Shown here: piece by piece, positions 875 to 57,477 of the stretch
Position numbering within the stretch: position 1 is the stretch's first letter
Layout: every line of letters begins with the position of its first letter
Source of the DNA: Chlorobiota bacterium
GTDB taxonomy: Bacteria; Bacteroidota; Ignavibacteria; Kapaibacteriales; NICIL-2
Reading direction: 5' to 3'
DNA: 64,000 bases
NCBI GenBank assembly: GCA_044228685.1
Contig: JBGAUL010000011.1
Coordinates: 13,886-77,885, forward strand
The notes under the pieces: model-generated
Told to the model about the DNA's origin: nothing
The model's input: the letters and a program-made list of their open reading frames with translations, nothing else
Database searches by the model: none
Position numbers and translations under genes: made by a program

Positions 875-3070
875 TTAATTCTCAACAACTACCGGCGTGA
901 CCATGCTTGTATTGCCAATTGCAAAGCGCAGATAATACACGCCCGGTTGCATTGTATCGGTATTCAGCTGGAAGCGCGCTGAACCTTTGAACGGAGTGAC
1001 TGATGAGTTCAGGTCTTGAATCTGCTCTCCCATGCTGTTGTACAGAATCATTGTAGGAGCATCGTTGACTCGAAGAGTAGAACTGCAGTTGATAAATGCT
1101 CGCCCATGCACCGGGTTCGGCGTCACTTCAATACTCAAATCGCCGGGATTCGGATTTACCAATCGAGCTCCGGTTGTGTCGTGCCAAACGTTTGAGACGC
1201 TGAACTGACCTCGGATATCATTGATGGCTAAAGGAATCTGCGATTTGTCGCTGTTGTACCAGCTTAGGTTGGAGACTTGCAGATCACAGTGCTCAGCATC
1301 GCCAAGACCGCAGATCATTTTAATCGAAAGCAATTCGCGGGCTGATCGCAGTGTTGTGAGCGTGTCGCTGACGTGTATCGTTTGAACACCATTCAGTATC
1401 GGTCCTCGAAGTGAACTCTCAGCCGGCGTCAACATTGTAGAGTTGAAACACAGGTCAAAGGAAAATGACGACGGCTGGAGTCCAAGAATTGCCGGAGGCA
1501 TGAGAAGCGAATCGATCAGCACTCGAACAAGGACGGTATCACCTACTCGCGCACTGCAATCAGGCACGCGCAAGTAAGGTTTCATGTAGGCACGAATTGG
1601 ATACTCTTGGTCGGGCGAATGAACGATCATTCTGTCCGTACTCAACGAGAATACCGTAGCACTACAAGCACTATCGCATGTCAGAGAGTGAATACCATCG
1701 GAGACCTTTCGTAGATAGTACGAGTAGTCGCTGCCACTAACTTCAACGAAACCGGTTTCAATCGGTTCGCGGTCAAACTCAAGCGACTTTTTTGCATTAG
1801 TCGGAAGACAAACGAGCAAGTATTGCGAGCCATAAACACGAATACCGGAACTACGAATCTGCGGTGCACAAACCACGTGCGAGTTTGTCCATGAGGATGT
1901 TGAAGGAACTGTAAACATAGCTGTGTTACCGAGAGATGTCTGAACATCAGTCGATGACTGCGTGTATTGAACACAGTTGATGGCAGAGCTTCCTTCAACA
2001 ACAACAGCATCATCCAGACCTAGCTCGAATGGTACTCCTGCATCGAGAACAGCCTTTTCTACGCCATTGATTTTGAGATGCGTTTGATCTAGCGCCGCAT
2101 AGATGCGTACATACTGTTTCGTCGTCGAACGAGCATTCTCTGAAACTTTCAACGGCACTAATACAGCCTTGTCGCCCCATCGCTCAACCGGATCACATTG
2201 TTGATACACCGTTCCGGTTTGCGTGTTTGGATAAATACCGTTATCGGCACCCGGACTTACTGCAGACTGATGTCCGGAAAAGACAGCTATTGGTTTTGTG
2301 GCTTTGATAATCACACCACTCATGTCAGTGCGAACACTTGTGCCTTCAATTGCAGATTGAATGAAATACGCTTCGCCTTTATTGAGGCTTATGCTGATCT
2401 TACCTTCTGATTCGTGCGAGGTTGGACCGTGAAGTTGTATGACGATATCGGTTGCATCATCGCGAGCAATGACCGCACATTGCGATGGCGTGGACTTGGT
2501 CCAATCCACATCACTGCTACCGGACTGTGGATGCACCAATGTTGAAGGCAGTGAACTGAGGATGTAACTGCGACCGAGGATTGATGTCGGTAGAACTAGA
2601 GTTGCAGCATCGCCGTTTTTGCTATGCGTAACCATGACGCACTGCACCGCGGAGTCTGCGTGAATAGCAAGTACCTGCGAACTAAGTATTGTCTCGGCTT
2701 GATCTGATGCTTGATAAACGCTGTCCACTAGACGACCGCGTAACTCTATGTTGGAATATGGAAATGATACCGTGCTTGAGCGACGAGGATCGATAATGCG
2801 GAATGTCTGATGAATGACCTTGCCGTCGTAACCACGAACGTCAATCGTCCCACTCGCATAATACTGCGAGCTGAAAACCAGACTCAGTGAATCTCCATTT
2901 TGATGAATCGCAGGTAAATAAGTCAGAAGAAAATCTGTCCCTGCGTTTGTGGCTGTAGCGTCTGTATCTGATGCTACAAGTCCGGTACCGAATGCCAACG
3001 CAACGAGAAGACGTAGAGTCCAAACTCGAGTGGCAAAAGCAGCTGCACTAACAATGCGAGCTCTGCACAT
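875..3070 (-). CDS. Secreted protein with type-A Por/T9SS C-terminal sorting domain (function unknown)
   Basis: 731 aa with an N-terminal signal peptide. C-terminus ...VTPNPVHGRAFINCSS...ILYNSMGEQIQ...LNTDTMQPGVYYLRFAIGNTSMVTPVVVEN matches the TIGR04183-type CTD pattern (PNP..., G.Y.v motif). Confidence 0.6.
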   Translation of the reverse strand: MCRARIVSAAAFATRVWTLRLLVALAFGTGLVASDTDATATNAGTDFLLTYLPAIHQNGDSLSLVFSSQYYASGTIDVRGYDGKVIHQTFRIIDPRRSSTVSFPYSNIELRGRLVDSVYQASDQAETILSSQVLAIHADSAVQCVMVTHSKNGDAATLVLPTSILGRSYILSSLPSTLVHPQSGSSDVDWTKSTPSQCAVIARDDATDIVIQLHGPTSHESEGKISISLNKGEAYFIQSAIEGTSVRTDMSGVIIKATKPIAVFSGHQSAVSPGADNGIYPNTQTGTVYQQCDPVERWGDKAVLVPLKVSENARSTTKQYVRIYAALDQTHLKINGVEKAVLDAGVPFELGLDDAVVVEGSSAINCVQYTQSSTDVQTSLGNTAMFTVPSTSSWTNSHVVCAPQIRSSGIRVYGSQYLLVCLPTNAKKSLEFDREPIETGFVEVSGSDYSYYLRKVSDGIHSLTCDSACSATVFSLSTDRMIVHSPDQEYPIRAYMKPYLRVPDCSARVGDTVLVRVLIDSLLMPPAILGLQPSSFSFDLCFNSTMLTPAESSLRGPILNGVQTIHVSDTLTTLRSARELLSIKMICGLGDAEHCDLQVSNLSWYNSDKSQIPLAINDIRGQFSVSNVWHDTTGARLVNPNPGDLSIEVTPNPVHGRAFINCSSTLRVNDAPTMILYNSMGEQIQDLNSSVTPFKGSARFQLNTDTMQPGVYYLRFAIGNTSMVTPVVVEN

Positions 3071-3146
3071 ATCCGTATGTTCCTTGAAATTGGTGGTGAA
3101 TGCTCTTAGAATTCAATTCTTAAGAGTCATCATATTTCAAGTCACG

Positions 3147-4265
3147 TTATCGGACTACTTTTCGGGAATCTATAATTTGTTCACACAAATTCATCATTTT
3201 CCGGGCCTCTTCATCCCAGGAAAAGCTCCTCGCCCACTCCACAGCACCCTGCGAAAGTTGTGCTCGAACTGAGCTATTTGAACAGAATTCAGACAAAACG
3301 CTGCTCAATTCCTCAACATTGCCGTAGCTATACAGCAATCCGCTCTGTCCGTTCGAAACGGAGTCGCGCAATCCCGGAACATTTGCCGCAATTGCCGGCG
3401 TTCCACAGGCATTTGCCTCAATATTGGTAATGCCCCAGCCTTCTTTCATGGAGGTGTTCACCACACACCAGGCGGCGCTGAGTAGCTCAATTTTCTGTTC
3501 TTCGCTGACCCGTCCAAAGAAGGTCACTGAAGACTCCACACCGAGCTCTCGACTCATTTTCTGCAATTCCGGGACGAAATCTCCGCTCCCCATGAACCAA
3601 AGCTGCGCCTTCGGATAGGTTTTAAGCAAGGGCACAAAAGCGCGCAAGAGATGATCCGGACTTTTGTATTTCTTGACGCGACTGAAGTAGCAAATGATTG
3701 GATCCGATGACTTTTCAGCCACTTTCATGGGAAAATGACGGTGTTCGACTGCATTGCGGATTATGCTGAGTTGGGAATCGCGAAAGCCGCGTGCAAGAAA
3801 CTCTTGTCGAGTGCTCTCTGAAACAACAGCGAAGTGTGTGGACTTATAGACCAAATTCACGAGCATTTCCGACACATACACATAGCTGGCACTTATAAAA
3901 TCCGCTTCGCGATAGATACTCTTTCCAAAGAAATGATGGGAGATGGCGAGCAGCGGTTCTTTGACGTAGAGCGGTGTGTAAAAAGGAATCTTGTTGACGT
4001 CGTCAATGACAAGGTCAAATCCTTCACGAGATAACTGCTTGTATGCCGAAGGGACGAAGAAGTTGAAGGTGTTACGGGCTCCACGACGAACAATGCGTAT
4101 TCCGTCGATGATCTCTTCCGAGGCTGCGCCTTCAAAGCCGCAACTGAGTTGTACGACGGTGTGTCCGGCTGCAACAATGCGCTTGAAGATCTCATGACAA
4201 TGGACTTCCGCCCCGCCTCCAAGCGGATTACGAATGTCCTGCCAGTTGATAACGAGAATCTTCAT
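3147..4265 (-). CDS. Glycosyltransferase family 4 (group 1 glycosyltransferase)
   Basis: 372 aa with the EGWGITNIEANACGTPAIA motif (GT4 E-X7-E region) and a Rossmann GT-B-like N-terminus. Confidence 0.75.
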   Translation of the reverse strand: MKILVINWQDIRNPLGGGAEVHCHEIFKRIVAAGHTVVQLSCGFEGAASEEIIDGIRIVRRGARNTFNFFVPSAYKQLSREGFDLVIDDVNKIPFYTPLYVKEPLLAISHHFFGKSIYREADFISASYVYVSEMLVNLVYKSTHFAVVSESTRQEFLARGFRDSQLSIIRNAVEHRHFPMKVAEKSSDPIICYFSRVKKYKSPDHLLRAFVPLLKTYPKAQLWFMGSGDFVPELQKMSRELGVESSVTFFGRVSEEQKIELLSAAWCVVNTSMKEGWGITNIEANACGTPAIAANVPGLRDSVSNGQSGLLYSYGNVEELSSVLSEFCSNSSVRAQLSQGAVEWARSFSWDEEARKMMNLCEQIIDSRKVVR

Positions 4266-4267
4266 GA

Positions 4268-4306
4268 AATAAAAAATGGACTCAATCTGTTAGAGTGAGT
4301 CCATGA
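4268..4306 (-). terminator. Rho-independent terminator downstream of secG
   Basis: 9-bp perfect inverted repeat atggactca / tgagtccat (4277-4305). On the minus-strand transcript it is followed by UUUUUUAUUU, which abuts the GT4 start codon. Confidence 0.55.
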
Positions 4307-4326
4307 TTCGTCAATGACGAAGAATA

Positions 4327-4737
4327 TTACTTGCCACCTTGCGGAGCTGGCTGCTGTTGAGCAGGTGCCGCTTGACCCTGTGCAGGTGCTGCTTGTTGTT
4401 GAGCCGGAGCCTGTTGTTGAGCAGGTGCTGCCGGAGCTGCTGCAGGAGCTGAAGGTGTTGATGTTTGGACGTTTTCGAATGGGTTTACAGTGTTATCCTC
4501 TTTACCCACTTTGAAAATTGTATTCGCGCTCAGTGATAGAATCATGATTGCGATAGCCAAACCAATAGTCGTTTTTACGATAAAATCAGCGGCACGGCGC
4601 ATGCCAATCATGGAGCCGAATTGTCCGCCAACACCACCAAAGCCAGCAGCCATATCGCCCTTGCCCGGTTGAATAAGAACTGCGCCGATCAGAAGAAGAC
4701 CAGCAATGCAGCTCAAAATCACAATGATTGTAAACAT
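4327..4737 (-). CDS. secG: Preprotein translocase subunit SecG
   Basis: N-terminal region ILSCIAGLLLIGAVLIQPGKGDMAAGFGGVGGQFG is the typical SecG signature. It carries an unusually long Pro/Ala/Gln-rich C-terminal tail. Confidence 0.8.
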   Translation of the reverse strand: MFTIIVILSCIAGLLLIGAVLIQPGKGDMAAGFGGVGGQFGSMIGMRRAADFIVKTTIGLAIAIMILSLSANTIFKVGKEDNTVNPFENVQTSTPSAPAAAPAAPAQQQAPAQQQAAPAQGQAAPAQQQPAPQGGK

Positions 4738-4836
4738 GATTCGAAGGTACAGTGATTAAGTGAACAACAAATATAGGACGAATCAGTCATGTGCCAAAGT
4801 GTGTCACGGTGAAAAAGTGTATCTTGCTATACGCCT

Positions 4837-6891
4837 ATGACGGAGCCACTCGACGAACAAGAACGTCCACTTTCGCTATCCCTGAAGGAGAAAATTGCCT
4901 CCTTGCCTACTCGTCCAGGCGTCTATTTTCACAAAAACGACGAAGGAAAAGTCATTTATGTTGGAAAAGCAAAGAACATCCGTAACCGCGTTCGCCAGTA
5001 CTTCGACCATAACCGTCAGGTCGATGCCAAGACCAAAGTCCTAGTTTCCAAAATCGCCGACGTCGACGTCATCGTAACCGACTCAGAAGCTGAAGCACTC
5101 ATCCTCGAAAACAATCTCATCAAGCAACACAAGCCACGCTATAATGTGTTGCTGAAGGACGATAAGAGTTATCCCTATATCCGCGTTACAAACGAAGAAT
5201 TCCCTCGAGTCTTCTCAACGCGGAAGGTGATTCGTGACGGGAGCAAGTACTTCGGACCATACACCGACCTACGATACATGTATTCGCTGTTGCGAACACT
5301 TCGCTCGCTCTTCCCCCTTCGTAGCTGCGATCTGCCATTGACTGAAGACACGATTGCTATGCAGAAGTACAAGGTGTGCTTGGACTATCATATCAAGAAA
5401 TGTGAGGGTCCTTGTCAGGCCTTTGTCGACCGTCTGCACTACAACGAGCACATCCGTCAATCAGTGCAAATCCTCAACGGTCGCACTCGTGAAGTCGAGA
5501 AACAGCTTGAGGAACAAATGATTATTCTCGCTGAAACGCTGCGCTTCGAAGAAGCTGCACAAGTGCGAAATCGTTTGGAAGTGCTGCGAGAATATTCTGA
5601 GCGACAAAAAGTCGTGAGTACCGATGAGTTCGATCGTGATGTCTTTGCTCTTTCGCGCGATGACCACGATGCGTGCACGGTGATTTTGTCCGTGCGCGAC
5701 GGCAAGCTCATTGCCAAGCGTCATTTCTACGCGTCCAATGTCCTGCATCAAACAGACGCTGAGATCATTGAAGGAGCGATGTCGCGCTACTACATGGAAT
5801 CGGATTTCATTCCTCCGGAGATCTTCCTTCCCTGCGACATTATCAACGATGATTTCATGATCGACTGGCTCTCCAAGAAGCGAAGCGCGGCTGTCGATCT
5901 CGTCGTACCGAAAATTGGCGAGAAGAAGAAGCTCGTCAATATGGCAACCGCAAATGCTGAATTCTTACTTCGCGACTTGCAATTGCAACACATGAAGCGT
6001 GAAGAATCGGTGCCTCGTGCAGTGGCTTCATTGCAACGCGATTTGCAGCTGAGCCGTGCACCGCGTCGAATTGAGTGCTTTGACAATTCCCACCTTCAAG
6101 GCACAGATTACGTGTCGTCCATGGTTGTCTTTGTTGATGGACGTCCGCGCAAAGCTGATTATCGCAAATTCAAAATCAAAAGTTTTGTTGGCAACGATGA
6201 CTTCGCCGCCATGCGTGAGGTTGTGGAACGTCGTTATCGTCGCTTGCTGGCTGAGAACGGTCACTTACCCGATCTCATCATCATCGACGGCGGTAAAGGA
6301 CAGCTCTCCTCTGCAGTCGAAATTCTCACTCGACTGGATCTCTACGGCAAGATCCCGATCATCGGTCTTGCAAAGCGTCTTGAAGAAGTCTTTGTCCCTG
6401 AACAAAGCGACGCCGTCATTCTCCCTCGCAGCTCCAGTGCACTTCGTCTGCTGCAACAACTACGCGATGAAGCTCACCGCTTCGCCATCACCTTCCATCG
6501 TGAACTGCGCTCGAAGCGAACGCTTCAAACTGAGCTCACTGCTATTAAGGGTCTGGGCGAAAAATCCGCCCAACGTCTACTCACCGAACTCGGCTCCGTC
6601 GAAGCCGTACGCAACACCAGCGAAGAAGGCATCGCCGCAATCGTCGGTAAGAGTTTAGCAAAACGAATCCGGGAGTATTTCGATACGAGTACTGACACGG
6701 CAACTTCAGGGATCGACAATCACGATGCTCAAGATGCGATTGTCGAAGAATTCTCACATCGCGATTTGGAAGAGGTTCATGTACCGGACGATGAAAGCAT
6801 GGACGAATCAGCTCGTTCTCACGAAAATGAAGATTCTCAAAGCCAGGATATTTCTGAAGACTCACTGAGTAACGGGCAGCAATCCAACTAA
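4837..6891 (+). CDS. uvrC: Excinuclease ABC subunit C (UvrC)
   Basis: GIY-YIG motif GVYFHKNDEGKVIYVGKAKNIRNRVRQYF, a UvrC/RNase H-like core, and a C-terminal HhH (IKGLGEKSAQRLL). It has an extra roughly 70-aa acidic C-terminal tail. Confidence 0.9.
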   Translation: MTEPLDEQERPLSLSLKEKIASLPTRPGVYFHKNDEGKVIYVGKAKNIRNRVRQYFDHNRQVDAKTKVLVSKIADVDVIVTDSEAEALILENNLIKQHKPRYNVLLKDDKSYPYIRVTNEEFPRVFSTRKVIRDGSKYFGPYTDLRYMYSLLRTLRSLFPLRSCDLPLTEDTIAMQKYKVCLDYHIKKCEGPCQAFVDRLHYNEHIRQSVQILNGRTREVEKQLEEQMIILAETLRFEEAAQVRNRLEVLREYSERQKVVSTDEFDRDVFALSRDDHDACTVILSVRDGKLIAKRHFYASNVLHQTDAEIIEGAMSRYYMESDFIPPEIFLPCDIINDDFMIDWLSKKRSAAVDLVVPKIGEKKKLVNMATANAEFLLRDLQLQHMKREESVPRAVASLQRDLQLSRAPRRIECFDNSHLQGTDYVSSMVVFVDGRPRKADYRKFKIKSFVGNDDFAAMREVVERRYRRLLAENGHLPDLIIIDGGKGQLSSAVEILTRLDLYGKIPIIGLAKRLEEVFVPEQSDAVILPRSSSALRLLQQLRDEAHRFAITFHRELRSKRTLQTELTAIKGLGEKSAQRLLTELGSVEAVRNTSEEGIAAIVGKSLAKRIREYFDTSTDTATSGIDNHDAQDAIVEEFSHRDLEEVHVPDDESMDESARSHENEDSQSQDISEDSLSNGQQSN

Positions 6892-25036: not shown

Positions 25037-27700
25037 TCACGCGTCTTTGTTCTGAATCTCCCGTCGAGCCAAGGCAGCTGCTACGCGCAGCTCGGCAAAA
25101 TCAATACGTGAACCTATTTCCGCTCGCAAGTCTTTTAGCAAAGCTCTGGGATTCTTTCTCAGGGCTTTTTTTACATCGAAAAATACATCGCTGCTAATCA
25201 GCGAAGCAACATTGAGTTCTATTCCAAGTTCAATTGCTTCTTGAAGATGAGCTGCAACCGTACCGGCGCTGAGACCACGGAGCTCAGCGGTTGTTTGCAA
25301 ACTGTTACCGCTTTGAATACTTTCTACGCTAGCTCTCGCACTACCGGACAAAGTCTTTTCCGGTGCTTTCGTCATGCTTGGATCTTTAGCCTGCGCACGA
25401 CGAATTGCTCGTAGAAAATCTTGAGCATAGCGGCGGATAAAGAAATCGCTTACGCCTGGCATGCGCTGCAATGCACTGAGTGAATCAGGCAGCTCGCGCG
25501 CAAGCCAATGCATTTGCTCGTCGGTGCAGATGAGATGAGCGGACACGGAATTTCTCGACGACAATTCCGAGCGCAGAAGACTAAGTGCTTGAAGTACTTC
25601 CTGCGGCTCATCGCTTTGCGGACGTGGCGCTGAGGCAGCTCGAAGACGCAATGGTTTTGTTGGCGAATCACCAAGCAGCAAACGTCCCTTCTCTCTCAAC
25701 TTCAAAATGGGATACACATCCGCAGACAGTTGCAAGTAATGTTGAAACACAGCTCTATCAACCCGCTCTAGTACATCGCGCAAAGCAACGTGCTTAAGTG
25801 ATGCGTAAGTGCTCACACGGTGAAGGCCATACGAAACAATTTTCGGCGATGATTGAGCACACAGAATTTGGGCAATGAGCACACGTCCAAAACGCTCTGA
25901 ACATTCATGAACAGTTTTGACGATCTGGGTTGTGATGTAGAGCTCTTGTTCGCTTTGCTTTGGTTCATCGACTACCGGTGCGACGCAGGAGCTACAGCGA
26001 CCGCACACTTCCTTTTGCTCTGCAGCTTCAAAGTACTCGAGTATGAAATTGCGTTTGCAGGAATTTGTTCGCGCATAGCGTTCAACTACATCCAGTTTTG
26101 CAACTGCTCTCTCACGGCGTTTTACCACATCATCGTAGTTGATCGGCAACGCATCCACACTCAACCGTTCCATGAGCAACACAATTCCGCCCTGCGCCGT
26201 TGCCGGTGTGTAGCGCATCAGACGAGAGTATTCAAAGGCGCGGATAGCTTTGTGAAATTGCTCGAAGGGGATGTCGTACTTGCGGACGAGTTGTGCTAGA
26301 TCCAAACTCACCGCGTTACGCAATGCCTCGGGTCCAACGCCTCGCAACAACGCTTCCAACACTTCCCTTCTCTCCGGCGTGGTCTGATGGAAATATTCTC
26401 TCAATCGCTCCGGCGGTGCAAGCAGATGCAGGGTTGATTGATTGTTTGCATTTCCGCGACGAATGATATCACATCGCTCTAGCAGATTCAAAACCCCATT
26501 CACACTAGCCGATGGAAGATTGAGGCGATGAGCTATGCCGACGTTGTCCATGAACAAGGGCAACTGACTACGCTGTCCTTTCGCCACACCCATGGTGTCA
26601 TAGAGAAAAGTATAGACACTTCGAATGGTGTTGAGTTCAGGATATGTTGAATGAATAAAGAACTCTTGCAGACTGCGATCCTGAGAGTTGTACAACAAGA
26701 TGCAATCAGAATCCAAGCCATCACGTCCTGCCCGACCGGCTTCTTGGTAATAGGCTTCAAGAGTGAGCGTAAAATCAGTGTGAATCACCCGTCGAACATC
26801 AGCTTTATCAACGCCCATGCCGAATGCCGAGGTGGCACACAGCACCGGCACTTGTCCGCTGATAAACTTCTCTTGAATATCCGTTCGCAGCACTTCATGC
26901 ATTCCGGCATGGTAGGCTTCGGCGTTGATGCCACTGCGTTTTAGTGCTTGGGTTGTTTCTTCGACGCGACGACGAGATCCGCAATACACGATCGAGGTTC
27001 CGTCAATCTTCTGTTTGAGTAACTCGAGTACGCGGGTCATTTTCATATCACTGGCTTCGGTGATATAGCGCAGATTGGGTCGATCAAAACCGCGGACGAT
27101 AGTTCTCGGTGCGTGTAAATTCAATGCGCGTGTGATGTCATCGCGCACTTCGGGAGTTGCTGTTGCGGTAAGTGCAATAACCGGGACGCGCTTTGTGTGC
27201 TCAAAGAGCTTTGGAATGTTCGTGTAGGATGGACGAAAGTCATGTCCCCACTCACTAATGCAATGCGCTTCATCGACAGCAAGAATGGACAGCGGTATGT
27301 GCGCAATGTCTTCTAGAAACTGCGCGCTCTCTAAACGTTCCGGAGCAACGTAGATCAGTTTGTACTGTCCACTTCGAGCAGCTTGCATGCGCTGCTGAAT
27401 ATCTTTAAACGAAACAGCAGAGTTGATGAAGGTGGCAGTGACGCCCGCGCGATGCAGCGCATCCACTTGATCCTTCATGAGTGCAATCAATGGAGAAATA
27501 ACAAGTACTGTTCCCTCTCGAAGCAGGGCGGGTATTTGATAGCAAAGAGATTTACCACCACCGGTTGGCATGACCACGAGAGTATCGTGGGCATGGAGAA
27601 TTGATTCGATGATTTCCCATTGTCCCGGACGGAAATCATCGTAGCCAAAGTATTGCCGCAGAAGATCCTGAGCACGTGCACGTTCGTTTGGGTGACTCAT
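25037..27700 (-). CDS. recQ: ATP-dependent DNA helicase RecQ (with RQC, HRDC and C-terminal HTH extension)
   Basis: FGYDDFRPGQWEIIESIL...VVMPTGGGKSLCYQIPAL, DEAH box LAVDEAHCISEWGHDFRP, a zinc-binding Cys cluster, and an HRDC-like segment. 887 aa. Confidence 0.9.
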   Translation of the reverse strand: MSHPNERARAQDLLRQYFGYDDFRPGQWEIIESILHAHDTLVVMPTGGGKSLCYQIPALLREGTVLVISPLIALMKDQVDALHRAGVTATFINSAVSFKDIQQRMQAARSGQYKLIYVAPERLESAQFLEDIAHIPLSILAVDEAHCISEWGHDFRPSYTNIPKLFEHTKRVPVIALTATATPEVRDDITRALNLHAPRTIVRGFDRPNLRYITEASDMKMTRVLELLKQKIDGTSIVYCGSRRRVEETTQALKRSGINAEAYHAGMHEVLRTDIQEKFISGQVPVLCATSAFGMGVDKADVRRVIHTDFTLTLEAYYQEAGRAGRDGLDSDCILLYNSQDRSLQEFFIHSTYPELNTIRSVYTFLYDTMGVAKGQRSQLPLFMDNVGIAHRLNLPSASVNGVLNLLERCDIIRRGNANNQSTLHLLAPPERLREYFHQTTPERREVLEALLRGVGPEALRNAVSLDLAQLVRKYDIPFEQFHKAIRAFEYSRLMRYTPATAQGGIVLLMERLSVDALPINYDDVVKRRERAVAKLDVVERYARTNSCKRNFILEYFEAAEQKEVCGRCSSCVAPVVDEPKQSEQELYITTQIVKTVHECSERFGRVLIAQILCAQSSPKIVSYGLHRVSTYASLKHVALRDVLERVDRAVFQHYLQLSADVYPILKLREKGRLLLGDSPTKPLRLRAASAPRPQSDEPQEVLQALSLLRSELSSRNSVSAHLICTDEQMHWLARELPDSLSALQRMPGVSDFFIRRYAQDFLRAIRRAQAKDPSMTKAPEKTLSGSARASVESIQSGNSLQTTAELRGLSAGTVAAHLQEAIELGIELNVASLISSDVFFDVKKALRKNPRALLKDLRAEIGSRIDFAELRVAAALARREIQNKDA

Positions 27701-27701
27701 G

Positions 27702-28355
27702 TTATCCTGCTAAGGTAAAATACTCGAGCTGCTTGTCGGTGTAGATGTTCAACACGTCTGCCCGCACAAGTCGCACCAGTATCTGAGAGGAGCGTCGCAA
27801 GGAAATATTCACTAGGTCGGCAAACTCACTGACGGTAATACGCTGATGCTCTTCCAAATACTGAAACAAGCGCTTTTCTCTATCGCCAATGTGTAGAGTC
27901 ATTGGTCTTGTGTGCACATTTCGTCCGGACATCAGCCGCATCATTTCCTTCGACGCCAACACTGACTGATCTGCGCTACGTATATAAGCTCTGCGCTCGG
28001 TTTGTTGATTTTGATCGGGATCGTTTTTTAGCATGTGTGGTTTGTTGTCGCTCTCAGGTACGTGTACGACAACAATTTCCTTCCAATCGCACTCAATACA
28101 CTCAATCAAGCAGTGTACCGGTGGATCGAGATAGAACTCGGCGGCGCTTAATACTAATTCAATTTGTTCTTTTTCACTATCTACACCGACGATGCTTCCG
28201 TCATCGTCAATTCCAACGAGCAAGGTGCCTCCGCGCGTGTTGGCAAATGCAGAGATCTCCTTTGCGAAGCGCTCGAAGGACGAGAATTTTCGTTTGAATT
28301 CAACAGTAGCGCCTTCGCCCTGTCGAATCATTTCACGGAGTTCACGACGATGCAT
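27702..28355 (-). CDS. AlbA_2 (Schlafen-like putative DNA-binding) domain protein with C-terminal winged HTH
   Basis: ATVEFKRKFS...ISAFANTRGGTLLVGIDDDGSIVGV is typical of PF04326-type domains, with a C-terminal HTH-like segment. Its stop codon is 1 nt from the recQ start codon. Confidence 0.55.
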   Translation of the reverse strand: MHRRELREMIRQGEGATVEFKRKFSSFERFAKEISAFANTRGGTLLVGIDDDGSIVGVDSEKEQIELVLSAAEFYLDPPVHCLIECIECDWKEIVVVHVPESDNKPHMLKNDPDQNQQTERRAYIRSADQSVLASKEMMRLMSGRNVHTRPMTLHIGDREKRLFQYLEEHQRITVSEFADLVNISLRRSSQILVRLVRADVLNIYTDKQLEYFTLAG

Positions 28356-28390
28356 GGTGATTCAGAAGTGTGGTGCAGAAGCAGAAAAGA

Positions 28391-30151
28391 TCACTGCATC
28401 ATCGATGACTGCAAATGCTTGGGGATGAACCACTCGGTGATTTCGTATCCAGGACGTACCGGATAGGTGTTCGCGCGAGCAACTCTTTTGTTTGCCAAAT
28501 TGAGCACGCCTGGCGTCCATAAGAATGTGTAAGGCGCTTCTTCGTGCACAATTCGTTGAAACTCACGCATGAGCTTCGTTCTCTCGTGAGGATCAAACTC
28601 AACGCGGTTTCGTTCCATCAACTCATCTGCCCGCTTGTTCTTGAAGCCCACATAATTGGATCCTTCGTTATCAGCTTGTGATGAATGCCAGAGCTGATAG
28701 GGATCTGACGGGATGTTGTCATTGATCCAGGAGCCTATGTAGGAATCAAAAGCATGGGTTGAATTTTGCTTGAGAAAGACTGACCATTCAACCCGCGAAA
28801 CGTTGCACTTTATTCCCAAGTTCTTTACTTCGTTGCTAAATAAAATGGCAATGTTCTCTCGTGCTTCATTACCGGCATTGACGTTCATGTTGAATTCGAA
28901 TTTGACCAGCTGACCATTAACCATCTTGTCGAGAATTCCGTCACCGTCGCTATCCTTCCATCCAGCCTCAGCCAACAACTCTCTGGCTTTTTGAGGATTG
29001 TAGTCGTAGCCGGTGATGGCTGAATCGTATTCGGGACGATTCTTGTACACCGGACCTTCAATCGTCGAAGCATAGCCTCGCAGAATTGCTTTCATGAGGT
29101 AATCGCGATTGAACAAATGACACAGGGCTTGTCGAACTCGTTTGTCGTTGAACAAAACCTTCCGCGTATTCCATCCCACATAGGAATAGATGCTTTGATC
29201 ACTTGAAATCTTGCGCACATAGGATATGCGGCTCGTGTCGATCTGCTCGTCGAACAATGGCGGAGGAACATTTTCAAAGAAATCAATATCCTCTGTTTTC
29301 ATCGCGCTCAATGCCGCATTGCGGTCATTGATGATGACGCCAACAACCACATCCACGTGTGCTTGACGCCACGCACAGGGTGTTGCCCATGCTTTCTTGT
29401 TTCGGTGCAGAACAATCTTCTCACCGGTTTTCCATTGTTGGTAGACATAAGGTCCGCTGCCAATCAACAACTTCGGATCCCGCTTCATTTCCGCACTTCC
29501 AAACCAATCTGCGAACTGCTGAATAGCAGGATTCTTCTGAATAGCATTGGTGTCGTTTGTTTCGGCGAAGGTGTATTGATCCGTGAGATTCTTTGGATCC
29601 AACACATGCTTTGGAACGATGCGCAAATCACCGAGCTGAATTTCAGCCATGAAGTATGGTTTCTTCATGTGGACGACGATGGTGTAATCGTCGGGTGCTT
29701 GCACATCTGTCACATCATCGAAATAATTTCGCAGTGCTGACGCATCTAGAATGAGCGGATTCTTGATGGTTTTGAAGCTAAAGAGTACGTCTGCGGCAGT
29801 GAGAGGATGTCCGTCAGAAAAGACCACATTCTTACGCAGATGAAATGTGTACTGCAAGTGATCCGCACTCAGCTCAGGCATTGACTCAGCGAGACTCGGA
29901 ACAAACTCTGTGGTTTTCGGATCCTGCTCCAGCATGCTGTCGAAAATGAGCGTAAACAGCGTCTTGGCTGAATTGTCATTTGTCGTGTAGGGATTCAATC
30001 CCTGCGGATCAGACAGTTCGTGATGAAAGACCATGTCGCCCGTCACCGGATCGCCCGGATTATCAAAATCATGAGCGTTGTGTCGATTGACGTTGCAAGA
30101 CATACATAGCAGCAAACTGCTAAGTACTATTTTTACTGCTAGAGATTTCAT
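28391..30151 (-). CDS. ABC-type peptide/nickel solute-binding protein (family 5), lipoprotein
   Basis: Lipobox LLLCMSC. SBP_bac_5-like motifs ...YTFHLRKNVVFSDGHPLTAADVLFSF.... 586 aa. No permease or ATPase genes adjacent. Confidence 0.75.
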   Translation of the reverse strand: MKSLAVKIVLSSLLLCMSCNVNRHNAHDFDNPGDPVTGDMVFHHELSDPQGLNPYTTNDNSAKTLFTLIFDSMLEQDPKTTEFVPSLAESMPELSADHLQYTFHLRKNVVFSDGHPLTAADVLFSFKTIKNPLILDASALRNYFDDVTDVQAPDDYTIVVHMKKPYFMAEIQLGDLRIVPKHVLDPKNLTDQYTFAETNDTNAIQKNPAIQQFADWFGSAEMKRDPKLLIGSGPYVYQQWKTGEKIVLHRNKKAWATPCAWRQAHVDVVVGVIINDRNAALSAMKTEDIDFFENVPPPLFDEQIDTSRISYVRKISSDQSIYSYVGWNTRKVLFNDKRVRQALCHLFNRDYLMKAILRGYASTIEGPVYKNRPEYDSAITGYDYNPQKARELLAEAGWKDSDGDGILDKMVNGQLVKFEFNMNVNAGNEARENIAILFSNEVKNLGIKCNVSRVEWSVFLKQNSTHAFDSYIGSWINDNIPSDPYQLWHSSQADNEGSNYVGFKNKRADELMERNRVEFDPHERTKLMREFQRIVHEEAPYTFLWTPGVLNLANKRVARANTYPVRPGYEITEWFIPKHLQSSMMQ

Positions 30152-50913: not shown

Positions 50914-51015
50914 AATTCTCCTAAGACTACGCTATACTACGATAGAATTACGGTCATGTGCAACAAAACATTTTTTCGCGCGCTCCAGCTCCTCTATTTT
51001 CGTACATCGTTTAGT

Positions 51016-51173
51016 AAAGGTGCTTCACTGTATAGCTGAAGAGAATAGGGAATCCCGTTAAATCCGGGAACGGTTGCGCCGCCGTGAAGGTTGACAAACT
51101 GTCACTAAATCCACTGCTTTATTGCGGGAAGGACGACAGTGCGAATGAAACCTGAGTCGGAAGACCTGCCTTT
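51016..51173 (+). promoter_or_regulatory. Cobalamin (AdoCbl) riboswitch
   Basis: GAATAGGGAATCCCGTTAAATCCGGGAACGGTTGCGCCGCCGTGAAGG matches the conserved core (AGGGAA..GGTG.AATCC..GC.G..CCCGCCACUG-like). The B12 box AGTCGGAAGACCTGCC is at 51154-51170. Candidate P1 is AAAGG(51016-20)/CCTTT(51169-73). The downstream leader has hairpins and a T9 run before the ATG at 51322. Confidence 0.8.
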
Positions 51174-51321
51174 GCTACTCATCGTGTCCACATGGACTGC
51201 ACTGCGCCAACAGTGCGATGAGGAAACTTCTTCGTTGTGCACTGCGGTCCTCGCAGCACCTTCTAGTCGTTTCCCCTTTCTTTTTTTCGTCGTCCGGCAG
51301 ACGGCACAACTACATTCTAAT

Positions 51322-52419
51322 ATGCGTATTTCTTTTGCGTCACTCGTGCGAGTGTTGCTTGTCGTATCCTGTCTTGTCGGACTCTATAGCTGCACCGACA
51401 CCATAGCACCGGCCGGCACCGGCAGTACTGTCGCCGACTCATCGGTCATTGTTGTTAATCAAGGGGGTTATCAACAGGACAACTCATCTCTTAGTCGAAT
51501 CCTCCGTCGTAGCGATTCTGTGGATCGTAGCTGGTTCTCTAGTGCCAATTCCGGACGAAAGCTCGGAGCAAATGCAAACAACATGCTCATCGTCGGTGAC
51601 ACCGCCTTCATTAGCGTTACCGGTTCTCATACCATCGAGGTTATCAATGTTCGTACCGGTACTCTTGTCAAAACACTGCACCTCGATAACGACGAACAAC
51701 CATGGGTTTTCACACAAGTCAATAGCAGCCTCGCAGCCGTCTCAACAAATAACGCCGATGGCTTGCGCTTGTTTAATCCTAAAACACTGGAGCTTCTGGA
51801 ACGCGTCACAACAGGACCTGCAACACAAGGCATCGCCGCGACTGCCTCTTCGATCTTCGTTGCCAACTCCGGTGCGGGAAGTCTTCGAGATACTGCTGCA
51901 GGCGCCGGCACGATTAGCGTCGTTGACGCGGTGAGTCGTATGACAACGCACCAAATCAACTGCGGCAAGAACGTCACAGAACTTATTTGCAGCGACGATG
52001 CAAAACGTGTTTACGCCTTTGTATCTGAGCTGTGGCCAAGTAAGAAACAACAAGTTGTTGAATATGATGCCGTGAGTTTTCTTGAACGACGTCGCTGGAC
52101 TTTTACAGCTTTGGGATTCATGAACTACTATCAGAACGCAGTGTACGTTTTGGCAAAAGTTGATTCCAACGATGCTGCTTGGAGTGTGCTACGTATTGAT
52201 GTCTCACAGAGCTCCCCAACGCCAACTGCCCTCTTCACTCTTCCCGCGAGCTTTATGCCGAATGGGATGAATATTCGTCGCAGCGATGGAACATTTTGGA
52301 TCTGCGACGCCGTTGATTTCGCCAGCAATGGCTTTGTCTCGGTCATGGATGCACGTGGCACCCAACTCAAGCGCTTCGGCGTTGGTTTAAACCCAGGCAA
52401 CATTTGCTTTTTCCATTGA
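51322..52419 (+). CDS. Surface lipoprotein with YVTN/YncE-type beta-propeller repeats, BtuG-like candidate
   Basis: Lipoprotein signal MRISFASLVRVLLVVSCLVGLYSCTD, and repeats of the type FVANSGAGSL...ISVVD. The longer ORF from 51139 would run through the riboswitch, so 51322 is the supported start. Immediately upstream of the TonB-dependent receptor. Confidence 0.55.
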   Translation: MRISFASLVRVLLVVSCLVGLYSCTDTIAPAGTGSTVADSSVIVVNQGGYQQDNSSLSRILRRSDSVDRSWFSSANSGRKLGANANNMLIVGDTAFISVTGSHTIEVINVRTGTLVKTLHLDNDEQPWVFTQVNSSLAAVSTNNADGLRLFNPKTLELLERVTTGPATQGIAATASSIFVANSGAGSLRDTAAGAGTISVVDAVSRMTTHQINCGKNVTELICSDDAKRVYAFVSELWPSKKQQVVEYDAVSFLERRRWTFTALGFMNYYQNAVYVLAKVDSNDAAWSVLRIDVSQSSPTPTALFTLPASFMPNGMNIRRSDGTFWICDAVDFASNGFVSVMDARGTQLKRFGVGLNPGNICFFH

Positions 52420-54534: not shown

Positions 54535-57477
54535 TTGCACGCTTGCATTTTTTCACCGTGCAAATCAGGTAATCCTAGTATGAGCGATTCCGCGGCAGCG
54601 AAGCCGAAGAAATACATCCGAATTGCAAACGCGAGAGTCAACAACCTCAAGAATGTAAGCGTCGATATCGAGCGTCAAGCCCTTACGGTTATTACCGGTT
54701 TAAGCGGCTCGGGTAAATCCTCGCTCGCCTTTGACACGTTATACGCCGAAGGACAGCGTCGTTTTGTTGAGTCGCTCTCAGCCTATGCCCGACAATTCCT
54801 CGAACGTAAGAACAAACCTGAGGTGGATTCTATCACAGGATTACCGCCTGCAATTGCAATCGAGCAAAAGACACTGACGCGTAATCCTCGTTCAACCGTC
54901 GGTACGACGACCGAGGTATATGATTATCTGCGTTTGCTCTATGCAAGAATTGGTGTGACCTTGTGTAAGCATTGTGGACGTGAAGTTCGCAAGGACAATC
55001 CACAATCAATTCTCGACGCGGTGTGGTCGTGGAATGAAGGCGACAGAATCTATATCCTCTTTAACCTCAGCACACAAATCAGCGTTGAAGAGCAGCTCAC
55101 CGAATTGATCCGCGCAGGATATACTCGAGTGATGATTGACGGAAGTTTTGATATCATCGATCTGCAAGAAGAAAGCGTTGATGAATCGATTATGGCTGAT
55201 AAAATCTTCGTTGTAAGCGATCGACTTCTGCTTAGCAAGAACGAAGATGTAAAATCCAGACTCTTTGATTCCATCGACACAACTTACAAGCGCGCGAGTG
55301 GAAGCGTGGTGGTGAGAAATGTGACGCTTGGTGAGACATTCATTTTCAATAACAAGTACGAATGTCCTTACGATCACACCGAGTATCAAGAACCTGAACC
55401 AAGACTCTTCTCGTTCAACTCCCCTTTCGGAGCTTGTCCGACATGTCAAGGATTTGGACGTAGCATCGGCATTGACGAAGATCTCGTCATTCCCGATCGC
55501 ACCAAGACTATACGCAACGGTGCCATCCATCCCTTCAAGGTGCAGTATGCGATGCAGTACAACACGGAGCTCACGAAGCATGCCAAGCGCGTGGGCATTA
55601 ATGTTGATGCTGCTGTTGCTTCGTTCTCGGATAAGGAGTACGAGTGGTTGTGGAATGGTGACAGAGAATATCCAGGACTCAATGGATATTTCAAGGAGTT
55701 AGAAGACAAATCGTATAAAGTCCAAAACCGCGTGATGCTTGCCCGCTATCGCGGCTACACTCGCTGCTCCTATTGCGGCGGATCACGTCTTCGCACCTCT
55801 GCGCGACAAGTCTTTGTCGGTTCAAAGAACATTCCGGCTGTCGTGGCGATGACCATTGACAAGGCTTATGAATTCTTCGTCAAGTTGAAATTGACGCCCT
55901 ATCAAAACAACGTCGCTGGCGTGTTGATGAAGGAAATTGTTTGGCGTCTGAAACTACTCGTGGACATCGGCGTCGGCTATTTGACGCTCGATCGTCTATC
56001 TCACACCTTAAGCGGCGGTGAATCGCAACGACTCAATTTGGCGACCTCGCTTGGCTCCTCACTGGTTGGCACTTTGTATGTGCTTGATGAGCCGAGTATC
56101 GGATTGCATCCGCGCGACACGCAGCGACTCGTAGATATCATGCTTCGATTGAGAAATCTGGGCAACACTGTTGTGGTGGTTGAGCATGATACGGATATCA
56201 TGATGCAGGCGGATAAGATCATTGACATGGGACCTCGAGCTGGCGAGCTCGGTGGTGAAGTGGTGTTCAATGGTACAGCCGAAGAAATCATGTTGCACGA
56301 GAAGTCCCTAACCGGACAATATCTCTCGGGCAGACGTCGCATCGAATTACCCGAAAAACGTCGCAAAGGCAATGGCTCTGCCTTGGTCATTGGCGGTGCG
56401 CATGAAAACAACTTGAAGATAGACGAATTGTCGATTCCTCTCGGCTGCATCTGTGTTGTGAGCGGCGTGAGTGGTTCCGGAAAAAGCACACTCGTTCATG
56501 ATGTGATCTACGCAAACCTCAAACGCTTCAGTGGTGGCTACAGTGGCATTGTTGGTAAATGCGAACGACTCGATGGAATGAATCTCGTGACGGATGTTGA
56601 GATGGTTGATCAATCTCCCATTGGACGATCCTCGCGATCTACGCCGGTTACTTACACCAAAGCTTTCGATTCCATTCGCGAGACATTTGCGGCGACACAG
56701 GCAGCACGCCAGCTTGGTTGGAAGGCGGGACACTTTTCCTTCAACGTCACTGGTGGACGCTGCGAAGCCTGCGAAGGCTCGGGCACCGTGGTCGTCGAAA
56801 TGCAATTCCTCCCGGATATCGAATTGGAGTGCGAAACCTGTCGAGGCACACGTTACAAACGTGAAGCCCGCAACATCCTCTTCCGTGGCAAGTCAATCAT
56901 TGATGTGCTTCAAATGACCATCGACGAGGCTGCGCACTTTTTCAAAGGCATGAAGAGAGTGACTGATCGTTTACAGATTCTGCGGGATGTGGGCTTGGGT
57001 TATTTGCGCATGGGACAGTCCTCATCAGTCTTGTCCGGTGGTGAAGCTCAACGTATCAAGCTCGCGACCCATCTCGACGAAGCGAACCGAAAGAATGTAC
57101 TGTACATCTTCGATGAACCAACAACAGGATTGCACCTCGATGACGTCTCGCGTCTCATAGATTGCTTCCAACGCTTGGTCGATCGTGGAAATTCAGTGCT
57201 CGTGATTGAGCATAATACGAGTGTGATTGCGTCTGCCGATTGGGTTATTGACCTCGGACCAGAAGCCGGCGATCGAGGCGGAGAGATTGTATGTACTGGC
57301 ACTCCTGAGCAAGTAGCCAAAGTCAAGAATTCGTACACCGGCCAAGCACTGAAAGCCCTCTTCGAGGGAATGAAGAAGCAAGATCTCGTCTTACCAAAAG
57401 TCAGTGCTGCAGCAGTTACTACAGAAGCACCGTTGGCAGCTAAGAAAGCCCGTGCGGTCCGTAAAAGTCTCAGCTAA
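54535..57477 (+). CDS. uvrA: Excinuclease ABC subunit A (UvrA)
   Basis: Two ABC modules (GLSGSGKSSLAFDTLYAEGQRR...; VSGVSGSGKSTLVHDVIYA...) and Zn-finger Cys clusters (CPTCQGFG, CEACEGSG). The likely start is MSDSAAAKPKKYIRI (about 54580). Confidence 0.92.
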   Translation: MHACIFSPCKSGNPSMSDSAAAKPKKYIRIANARVNNLKNVSVDIERQALTVITGLSGSGKSSLAFDTLYAEGQRRFVESLSAYARQFLERKNKPEVDSITGLPPAIAIEQKTLTRNPRSTVGTTTEVYDYLRLLYARIGVTLCKHCGREVRKDNPQSILDAVWSWNEGDRIYILFNLSTQISVEEQLTELIRAGYTRVMIDGSFDIIDLQEESVDESIMADKIFVVSDRLLLSKNEDVKSRLFDSIDTTYKRASGSVVVRNVTLGETFIFNNKYECPYDHTEYQEPEPRLFSFNSPFGACPTCQGFGRSIGIDEDLVIPDRTKTIRNGAIHPFKVQYAMQYNTELTKHAKRVGINVDAAVASFSDKEYEWLWNGDREYPGLNGYFKELEDKSYKVQNRVMLARYRGYTRCSYCGGSRLRTSARQVFVGSKNIPAVVAMTIDKAYEFFVKLKLTPYQNNVAGVLMKEIVWRLKLLVDIGVGYLTLDRLSHTLSGGESQRLNLATSLGSSLVGTLYVLDEPSIGLHPRDTQRLVDIMLRLRNLGNTVVVVEHDTDIMMQADKIIDMGPRAGELGGEVVFNGTAEEIMLHEKSLTGQYLSGRRRIELPEKRRKGNGSALVIGGAHENNLKIDELSIPLGCICVVSGVSGSGKSTLVHDVIYANLKRFSGGYSGIVGKCERLDGMNLVTDVEMVDQSPIGRSSRSTPVTYTKAFDSIRETFAATQAARQLGWKAGHFSFNVTGGRCEACEGSGTVVVEMQFLPDIELECETCRGTRYKREARNILFRGKSIIDVLQMTIDEAAHFFKGMKRVTDRLQILRDVGLGYLRMGQSSSVLSGGEAQRIKLATHLDEANRKNVLYIFDEPTTGLHLDDVSRLIDCFQRLVDRGNSVLVIEHNTSVIASADWVIDLGPEAGDRGGEIVCTGTPEQVAKVKNSYTGQALKALFEGMKKQDLVLPKVSAAAVTTEAPLAAKKARAVRKSLS

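Follow-up and report, generated by a model that had tools for sequence, protein, structure and literature searches.

Within a 64,000-nucleotide stretch of contig JBGAUL010000011.1 from a Chlorobiota bacterium of the NICIL-2 lineage (assembly GCA_044228685.1, positions 13,886 to 77,885), hereafter the window, a gene for a small Schlafen protein lies immediately upstream of a gene for the helicase RecQ. The small gene, slfn-HTH or simply slfn, occupies positions 27702..28355 of the minus strand and encodes 217 amino acids (aa) comprising a Schlafen (AlbA_2) domain and a C-terminal winged helix-turn-helix (HTH), as judged from its open reading frame (ORF), Pfam family PF04326, an AlphaFold2 model and Foldseek searches. 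The recQ gene (25037..27700, minus strand) encodes 887 aa and was identified by Pfam, TIGR00614 and alignment to the Escherichia coli RecQ structure 1oyw. Upstream of slfn on the same strand is a gene for a 586-aa solute-binding lipoprotein of the SBP_bac_5 family (28391..30151), recognised from its ORF and from orthologues that match PF00496; the spacer between the two genes (28356..28390) is 35 nucleotides (nt) long and holds no promoter-like site, by inspection of the sequence and a sigma-70 scan. A previous interpretation, referred to here as the sequence-only reading, had described an AlbA_2 and winged-HTH protein of 217 aa whose gene stops 1 nt before the start of an 887-aa recQ on the same strand, and both the coordinates and the junction were confirmed.

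The junction between slfn and recQ (27698..27704, minus strand) consists of a stop codon, a single base and a start codon, TAA-c-ATG. The slfn stop codon TAA occupies 27702-27704 (27704-27702 in the direction of reading), the spacer base is 27701 and the recQ ATG is 27700-27698, the minus strand reading GCA GGA TAA c ATG AGT, with an AGGA 4 nt upstream of the recQ ATG inside the 3' end of slfn. The recQ start is unambiguous because this ATG is the first start codon past the preceding in-frame stop and lies 9 codons ahead of the region aligned to position 1 of model TIGR01389. Junctions of this type are ordinary in this genome: gaps of at most 1 nt separate 8 of the 29 same-strand neighbour pairs of the window, by longest-ORF gene calls. 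A scan for sigma-70 promoters and terminators across 24.8-30.4 kb returned sites no more frequently than when the sequence was shuffled, with the junctions free of them, and a search of the minus strand for the Bacteroidota -7 motif TAnnTTTG gave no match; the operon structure is therefore read from spacing only. Co-transcription is very probable because the spacers measure 35 nt and 1 nt and no promoter- or terminator-like signal lies between the genes, SBP_bac_5, slfn and recQ probably forming one operon here with SBP_bac_5 probably the first gene. Translation of recQ is plausibly coupled to termination of slfn at the TAA-c-ATG junction, in the manner of termination-reinitiation.

PF04326 (SLFN_AlbA_2) covers residues 14-133 of the small protein (27957..28316, minus strand; 91 bits where the cut-off is 25.3, E 1e-25), an assignment that agrees with family profile matches to SLFN14 and CbCash. 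The C-terminus draws at most a weak match to a PCI-type winged helix in Pfam, and no NCBIfam model names the 217-aa protein. An AlphaFold2 model built on an alignment of 35 family members (predicted local distance difference test, pLDDT, 89.7; predicted template modelling score, pTM, 0.77) folds into two domains, the second of which, residues ~158-215 (27711..27884, minus strand), is a winged helix-turn-helix of three helices and two strands (H158-170, H175-182, H186-198, E202-207, E210-215). Its assignment draws further on Foldseek matches to ArsR/CadC, MarR and Z-alpha winged helices and on invariant alignment columns. For the Schlafen domain, Foldseek returned 3lmm, 2kyy, SLFN13 (5yd0), SLFN12, SLFN11, SLFN14 and the tRNase domain of SAMD9, all with probability 1.00 and E 9e-6 to 1e-3, and the best matches of the 217-aa protein were 3lmm and 2kyy, both of COG2865 type. 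Proteins of that type (AlbA_2 plus HATPase_c_4 plus HTH; DIP2311, 3lmm, and the 'RecG-related' N-domain 2kyy) have the same order of domains, beginning with AlbA_2 and ending in a winged helix, but the 217-aa protein is a minimal version without the central HATPase_c_4/GHKL-like domain, which finds no Pfam match in it and no place in its two-domain model. The small protein thus belongs, as a stand-alone prokaryotic Schlafen, to the 'Slfn-HTH' architecture, which accounts for 8.8% of 5,930 catalogued bacterial and archaeal Schlafens and is a class outside those tested in the cataloguing study (PMC13056530).

From sequence alone, the family profile matches residues 199-310 of SLFN14 (E 8.8e-13) and, over its positions 14-143, residues 17-162 of CbCash (E 5.9e-10); it additionally matches SLFN11/12/13/5. 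The predicted active-site motif, E14-x4-E19-x-K21-R22 within GEGATVEFKR (28290..28316, minus strand), aligns with E17/D22/K24/R25 of CbCash and E206/E211/K213 of SLFN14. In CbCash these residues form a Mg2+ catalytic centre whose mutation abolishes tRNA cleavage (PMC13462974), and the Ex4(E/D)xK motif defines bacterial Schlafen nucleases (PMC13056530). E14, E19, K21 and R22 are invariant across the 35-sequence family alignment; the same holds for AFANTxGG, GxDD and KPH and for N183, S185 and R187 of the predicted recognition helix. With a complete active site, the protein is most likely a regulated Mg2+-dependent endoribonuclease, directed most likely at tRNA by analogy with characterised Schlafens, and we infer that the winged helix is a nucleic-acid-binding or gating module.

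Likeness to characterised Schlafens extends beyond the motif. The bacterial Schlafens RorSlfn5 and EcoSlfn7 (Nat Microbiol 2026, PMC13056530) share an N-terminal Schlafen domain with Ex4(E/D)xK (E15/D20 in RorSlfn5, E14/E19/K21 here) and consist, like the protein described here, of a single polypeptide with one fused accessory domain; that domain is a winged helix here, whereas it is Ig-like (immunoglobulin-like) or DUF262 there, and the present gene differs also in being slow-evolving, syntenic with housekeeping genes and devoid of a defence-island context. The CRISPR-associated Schlafen CbCash (PDB 9ylu; Nat Commun 2026, PMC13462974) resembles it over the whole Schlafen domain, including the catalytic E/D/K/R and the KPH and R..AS.E motifs, but is fused to a Csx15 sensor of cyclic tetra-adenylate (cA4) and resides in type III CRISPR loci, whereas the present protein has a winged-helix partner and lacks a CRISPR or cyclic-oligonucleotide context. 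Mammalian SLFN11/13/14 share the Schlafen fold and the active-site motif, the AFANTxGGxLxxGVDD stretch found here closely resembling AFANTQGGYVLIGVDD of SLFN14, and in SLFN11, as at this locus, a nuclease module is associated with a helicase. In the mammalian proteins, however, a two-lobed nuclease domain is fused in cis to a superfamily 1 (SF1) helicase, whereas the nuclease described here consists of one small domain, and its helicase neighbour, present in one clade only, is a RecQ of superfamily 2 (SF2) encoded separately. In SLFN11, engagement of single-stranded DNA (ssDNA) by the helicase domain activates the tRNase.

The family to which the small protein belongs is large. When 1.84 billion cluster representatives were scanned in full with HMMER, at least 234 clusters (50% identity), from Kapabacteria, Ignavibacteria and relatives, were found to share Slfn-HTH at E<=1e-30, nearly all of them stand-alone proteins of 205-235 aa that align from end to end. 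A protein identical (100%) to the small protein, P0001, comes from an NCBI contig, and its nearest relatives come from metagenome-assembled genomes named Candidatus Kapaibacterium, Chlorobiota, Kapabacteria and Ignavibacteria. No fusion to a helicase was found among the 150 best family representatives, where the only fusion was P0251 (978 aa, from the representative library), an N-terminal tetratricopeptide repeat (TPR) protein of ~760 aa joined to a complete Schlafen-HTH at 764-977. P0251 was considered as a Rosetta stone for UvrD or RecQ and rejected because its 763-aa N-terminal region is a TPR protein; it mirrors the adjacency of a TPR gene upstream of slfn at loci L070, L090 and L091, and may be a true fusion or a read-through gene call. 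Another entry of the same library, P0243 (2337 aa), carries ~20 tandem copies of the N-terminal half of AlbA_2 (PF04326, 510 bits over 20 stretches) and is unrelated to the locus.

To what extent recQ accompanies slfn was assessed at 97 loci, which came from scanning a genome collection, from scanning metagenomes with the family alignment and from looking up exact sequences. The genome-collection scan, run with the single protein, contributed 6 loci of which 3 were true orthologues, and the survey consists mainly of metagenome contigs and exact-sequence look-ups. RecQ, SBP_bac_5 and purB were located at the survey loci by tblastn, lineages were dereplicated at 90% identity with L096 and L097 added, and the 54 lineages with at least 1 kb of downstream sequence were evaluable. 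In eight of these 54, recQ lies directly downstream of slfn, and these eight coincide precisely with the lineages in which the small protein shares 56-83% identity with the query; at 43-54% identity, recQ is downstream in 0 of 46 lineages. In a neighbour-joining tree the recQ-adjacent loci fall in one clade, which also takes in L049 and the L066 group, two lineages that have no recQ there. Approached from the other side, none of four distant RecQ orthologues (39-45% identity, same ~880-aa architecture), one of them from 'Ca. Kapabacteria thiocyanatum', has slfn upstream, and the genes that do lie upstream are unrelated. Thus recQ adjacency is stable in the Kapaibacterium/NICIL-2 sub-lineage and is not a property of the slfn family.

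Within the clade, a tight or overlapping junction (a gap of 0-1 nt or an overlap of 17-26 nt) is found in 6/8 lineages. The TAA-c-ATG junction of the window, with its 1-nt gap, recurs in L002 and L003; L001 has TAG-ATG with no gap; and the NICIL-2 type (L007, L013, L014) has overlaps of 17-26 nt. The remaining two lineages, L096 and L097, have genuine spacers of 57-127 nt, with in-frame stops upstream of the recQ start, and tight coupling has therefore not been kept throughout the clade. The pair itself has outlasted turnover of both flanks, the upstream gene being SBP_bac_5 or, in L096, NuoF-like, and the downstream gene purB, rimM, TP_methylase or another. For the co-transcription and translational coupling proposed in the sequence-only reading, the retention of the pair in 8/8 clade lineages and the tight junctions in six provide inferential support, with the longer spacers of L096 and L097 marking its limit. 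That reading had also named two ways in which a special bond could prove illusory, namely adjacency missing from close relatives and slfn standing next to unrelated genes. The former is contradicted by the presence of recQ in all eight lineages at 56% identity or more; the latter holds outside the clade, where slfn adjoins genes for MtgA, SpoU, LpxK, UvrD, a glycosyltransferase and others. Conservation of the adjacency, which it had proposed to check, thus extends to those eight lineages and stops short of the 46 more distant ones.

Clustering and Pfam searches of flanking ORFs, covering more than 25 contexts, place these other neighbours among housekeeping and envelope genes. An SBP_bac_5 gene precedes slfn in 16/58 evaluable lineages, a wider spread than that of the recQ neighbour; the SBP_bac_5 arrangement takes in both Kapabacteria-like and Ignavibacteria-like lineages and at times involves overlaps of 4-46 nt. 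This lipoprotein gene, without adjacent genes for an ABC (ATP-binding cassette) permease or ATPase, is the most widespread upstream neighbour, and a functional reason for its presence is not obvious. At ~10 loci (including L034, L036, L043, L051 and L064), genes for RuvX (YqgF) and MtgA precede slfn, often with 4-nt overlaps, and a gene for a SpoU-type RNA methyltransferase faces it from downstream; as RNA-processing neighbours, YqgF and SpoU would fit an RNA-directed housekeeping role of the Schlafen. At four metagenome loci, L017, L037, L038 and L044 (~2200-5650), slfn follows a gene for UvrD/PcrA with same-strand gaps of 29-69 nt and faces lpxK (LpxK). Further neighbours include genes for a glycosyltransferase and for a TPR protein, each upstream of slfn, and for proteins sorted by the type IX secretion system (T9SS), peptide deformylase, RmlC, LptF/G, NDH-2, a TrkA channel, an amino-acid permease, a PAS histidine kinase and others. 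Which type of neighbour a locus has follows the Slfn gene tree, the pattern that vertical inheritance would produce.

Evolutionary rates separate the two genes of the pair. Synonymous divergence (dS) is saturated (proportion of synonymous differences, pS, ~0.8), and only nonsynonymous divergence (dN) was therefore compared, without dN/dS. Between this genome and two relatives, dN is 0.15-0.20 for slfn, 0.12-0.13 for purB, 0.24 for SBP_bac_5 and 0.40-0.49 for recQ, the value for recQ being ~2.5-3 times that of the adjacent slfn (window against L001-L003). The low dN of slfn points to purifying selection comparable to that on purB and much stronger than that on recQ. RecQ identity is only 49-57% for genomes that share 85% identity in purB, and GC content is normal.

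Prokaryotic Schlafens commonly keep other company, 69.6% of them lying within 10 kb of a known defence gene (PMC13056530). Here, a PADLOC search at E<=1e-5 gave no defence match among 10 ORFs of at least 250 aa between 14.9 and 38.5 kb (~13 kb around the locus; prfA and purB left out), and slfn at this locus lies outside a defence island. Across the survey, the sole neighbour with a flavour of defence is a weak SIR2_2 match in L082. The small protein itself gives a weak PADLOC match to the candidate system PDC-S50 (E 1.2e-9), which was rejected as evidence of defence, being a weak match to a candidate family.

The RecQ encoded downstream is an extended form of the enzyme. Pfam recognises DEAD, Helicase_C, RecQ_Zn_bind, RQC, HRDC and a C-terminal HTH_40 domain, laid out as an SF2 core at residues 8-342, an insertion at ~343-534, the Zn-binding/RQC region at 535-677, HRDC at 701-766 and HTH_40 at 788-874. 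The protein passes TIGR00614 recQ_fam (462.7 bits, cut-off 219.8) and falls just below the cut-off of the equivalog TIGR01389 (585.2 bits against 640.2) because of the ~190-aa insertion. Residues 8-342 align to 11-345 of E. coli RecQ (1oyw) and 535-636 to 367-462; the helicase core is ~50% similar over 8-342 and the Zn-binding, RQC and HRDC domains are all present, but the ~190-aa insertion and the C-terminal HTH_40 are absent from the E. coli enzyme and are the norm in Kapabacteria/Ignavibacteria. The insertion (26099..26674, minus strand), delimited as a gap against E. coli RecQ, separates the helicase core from the Zn-binding region, and an alignment consensus shows that its sequence is conserved among the ~880-aa RecQs of Kapabacteria and Ignavibacteria. 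Its AlphaFold2 model (pLDDT 87.7) resembles two helix-helix-strand-strand units, which may be winged-helix-like; Foldseek gave weak, non-significant matches (E >= 0.086) to winged helices of MntR, Lrp, MarR and AlkX type. Together with RQC, HTH_40 and HRDC, the insertion would give RecQ an unusually large set of nucleic-acid-binding modules. The extended form (~870-930 aa, same domain set) occurs in at least 120 homologues from Kapabacteria, Ignavibacteria and relatives, and the extended architecture is general in the group and independent of slfn as a neighbour. Identification of this RecQ as DpdF was rejected, NF041063 scoring 195 against a cut-off of 550, and the PADLOC matches of RecQ to DpdF and PsyrT were set aside as evidence of defence because they cover the generic helicase core only; among the window ORFs and the scanned set of 10 ORFs, no dpd or psyrA partner genes were found nearby.

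The reading that we favour, with confidence somewhat above even, is that slfn encodes a stand-alone Schlafen nuclease that is vertically inherited and core-like, with recQ the operon neighbour of one sub-lineage rather than a dedicated partner. The AlbA_2/Schlafen domain with its Ex4ExK (+R) site would act as a metal-dependent RNase, and the winged helix would bind nucleic acid and position or gate the nuclease. The gene would be a chromosomal one that the Kapabacteria-Ignavibacteria group has inherited vertically and under strong constraint, not a mobile gene of defence islands, and its role would be housekeeping or stress-related, with no need of a fixed protein partner. In the Kapaibacterium/NICIL-2 sub-lineage, recQ would have come to sit directly downstream of slfn, usually in one operon with an upstream SBP_bac_5 gene. 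The link between slfn and RecQ would thereby be one of position and shared expression rather than of a dedicated two-protein machine, although this absence of a physical partnership is itself something we infer. Several observations pull the other way. The pair has persisted through rearrangement of its flanks while RecQ identity within the clade falls to as little as 39%, which could reflect selection on the pair. In a separate lineage slfn lies directly downstream of UvrD/PcrA, and a further lineage has RuvX two genes away; two DNA helicases among ~30 neighbour families exceeds naive expectation, with the caveat that the observation is post hoc. The UvrD arrangement, a second and independent case of a DNA-helicase neighbour, may be chance or may be a weak hint of a link between helicases and Schlafens. 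Finally, a tRNase that is constitutively encoded with no visible inhibitor would require some mechanism of regulation.

Some of these observations lend themselves to the proposal of the sequence-only reading, that the small protein is a dedicated regulatory or sensor subunit of RecQ. In this account, or in its converse with RecQ as the sensor of the nuclease, the two genes would constitute a DNA-damage or anti-phage module resembling a split SLFN11. Retention of the pair in 8/8 clade lineages across flank turnover, the tight or overlapping junction in six of them, an intact active-site motif, UvrD directly upstream of slfn in a second lineage and the conceptual parallel with SLFN11 all speak for such a partnership. 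The distribution of the two genes does not follow it, however: recQ is downstream of slfn in 0/46 lineages outside the clade (all below 55% identity), was lost or never present in two lineages within it, and has slfn upstream in none of the four RecQ orthologues of identical architecture, while the 150 representatives contain no helicase fusion that would betray a functional tie. Conservation of the small protein is just as strong at loci that lack an adjacent RecQ, an SBP_bac_5 gene that is functionally implausible as a partner is the more widespread neighbour (16/58), coupling is dispensable to judge from the spacers of L096 and L097, and the 10 ORFs scanned nearby hold no defence genes. A dedicated partnership is accordingly very unlikely, and the related suggestion of a defence-like module built on RecQ fares no better against the PADLOC result and the housekeeping context. 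A more elaborate version has a catalytically competent, stand-alone Schlafen RNase recruited to recQ in the Kapaibacterium/NICIL-2 clade, as an analogue of a split SLFN11 in which RecQ, on engaging ssDNA at a stalled fork or phage DNA under replication, would permit the nuclease, tethered by its winged helix, to cut tRNA and arrest growth, survival of the pair and the UvrD-slfn arrangement being traces of a general functional axis of helicases and Schlafens in bacteria; this we regard as highly improbable.

Two further accounts dispense with RecQ. A chromosomally fixed anti-phage effector could act alone, its winged helix sensing phage nucleic acid or protein and unleashing the Schlafen tRNase in abortive infection. 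The bacterial Schlafens that have been tested (RorSlfn5, EcoSlfn7 and CbCash) are defence tRNases whose fused domains serve as sensors (PMC13056530, PMC13462974), and the intact motif and the weak match to PDC-S50 would accord with such a function. A gene of this kind would hardly be expected to evolve as slowly as purB, to show stable, lineage-specific synteny with housekeeping neighbours, to lack defence genes in the 10 ORFs scanned within ~13 kb, or to keep a recognition helix that is invariant across classes, unlike the sensors of arms races; moreover, 30.4% of prokaryotic Schlafens are not associated with defence and may have non-immune roles (PMC13056530). A solitary effector is on balance unlikely. 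Alternatively, the protein could be a non-catalytic nucleic-acid-binding protein, a transcription factor or nucleoid-associated protein in which AlbA_2 is only a ligand- or DNA-binding module, as the source annotations 'predicted HTH transcriptional regulator' and 'putative DNA-binding domain' imply. The ArsR/MarR-like winged helix with its invariant recognition helix would suit a regulator, and several mammalian Schlafens have no nuclease activity (PMC13462974). Against this, the whole catalytic E-E-K(R) set is invariant at ~50% family identity, which would be unexpected had catalysis been lost, and slfn frequently runs into, or directly adjoins, an unrelated gene upstream (MtgA, -4 nt; SBP_bac_5, -46 nt), an arrangement that leaves no conserved promoter or operator of its own of the kind usual for autoregulated transcription factors. 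A purely regulatory protein is thus quite unlikely, and the stand-alone nuclease remains the preferred interpretation.

Bacterial Schlafens were shown to be defence tRNases only in 2025-2026, and the possibility of a non-immune role for the ~30% outside defence islands was left open (PMC13056530). Minimal in size (~215 aa), complete in its active-site motif and conserved to a degree resembling purB, the Slfn-HTH family offers a clean candidate for such a role, and opens a non-defence function of bacterial Schlafens to testing, since the protein is small and easy to express. Linkage to recQ is the lesser matter, a clade-specific operon that would gain interest only from proof of a physical or regulatory tie with the helicase, which would parallel SLFN11. 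Publications already cover the domain family, the catalytic motif and the architecture with a fused HTH; what may be new is a large, slow-evolving, core-like Slfn-HTH family in Kapabacteria/Ignavibacteria and its clade-specific operon with recQ. A literature search found no paper on either, and searches on bacterial Schlafen with RecQ and on COG2865 returned nothing relevant.

A few other features of the window are recorded for completeness. No tRNA genes were found in it. An apparent ORF-free gap of 2 kb at 57.5-59.6 kb was rejected as an artefact of the gene caller, a 762-aa ORF being present there. The sole Rfam match in the window is a cobalamin riboswitch, RF00174, at 51001-51187 (plus strand; 90.9 bits, E 3e-21), which overlaps the longest-ORF start of the gene at 51139-52419 (plus strand), and the true start of that gene is therefore probably further downstream. 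A UvrA-like excinuclease ABC subunit of 980 aa is encoded at 54535-57477 (plus strand), ~27 kb from recQ, and is an ordinary gene that provides DNA-repair context only.

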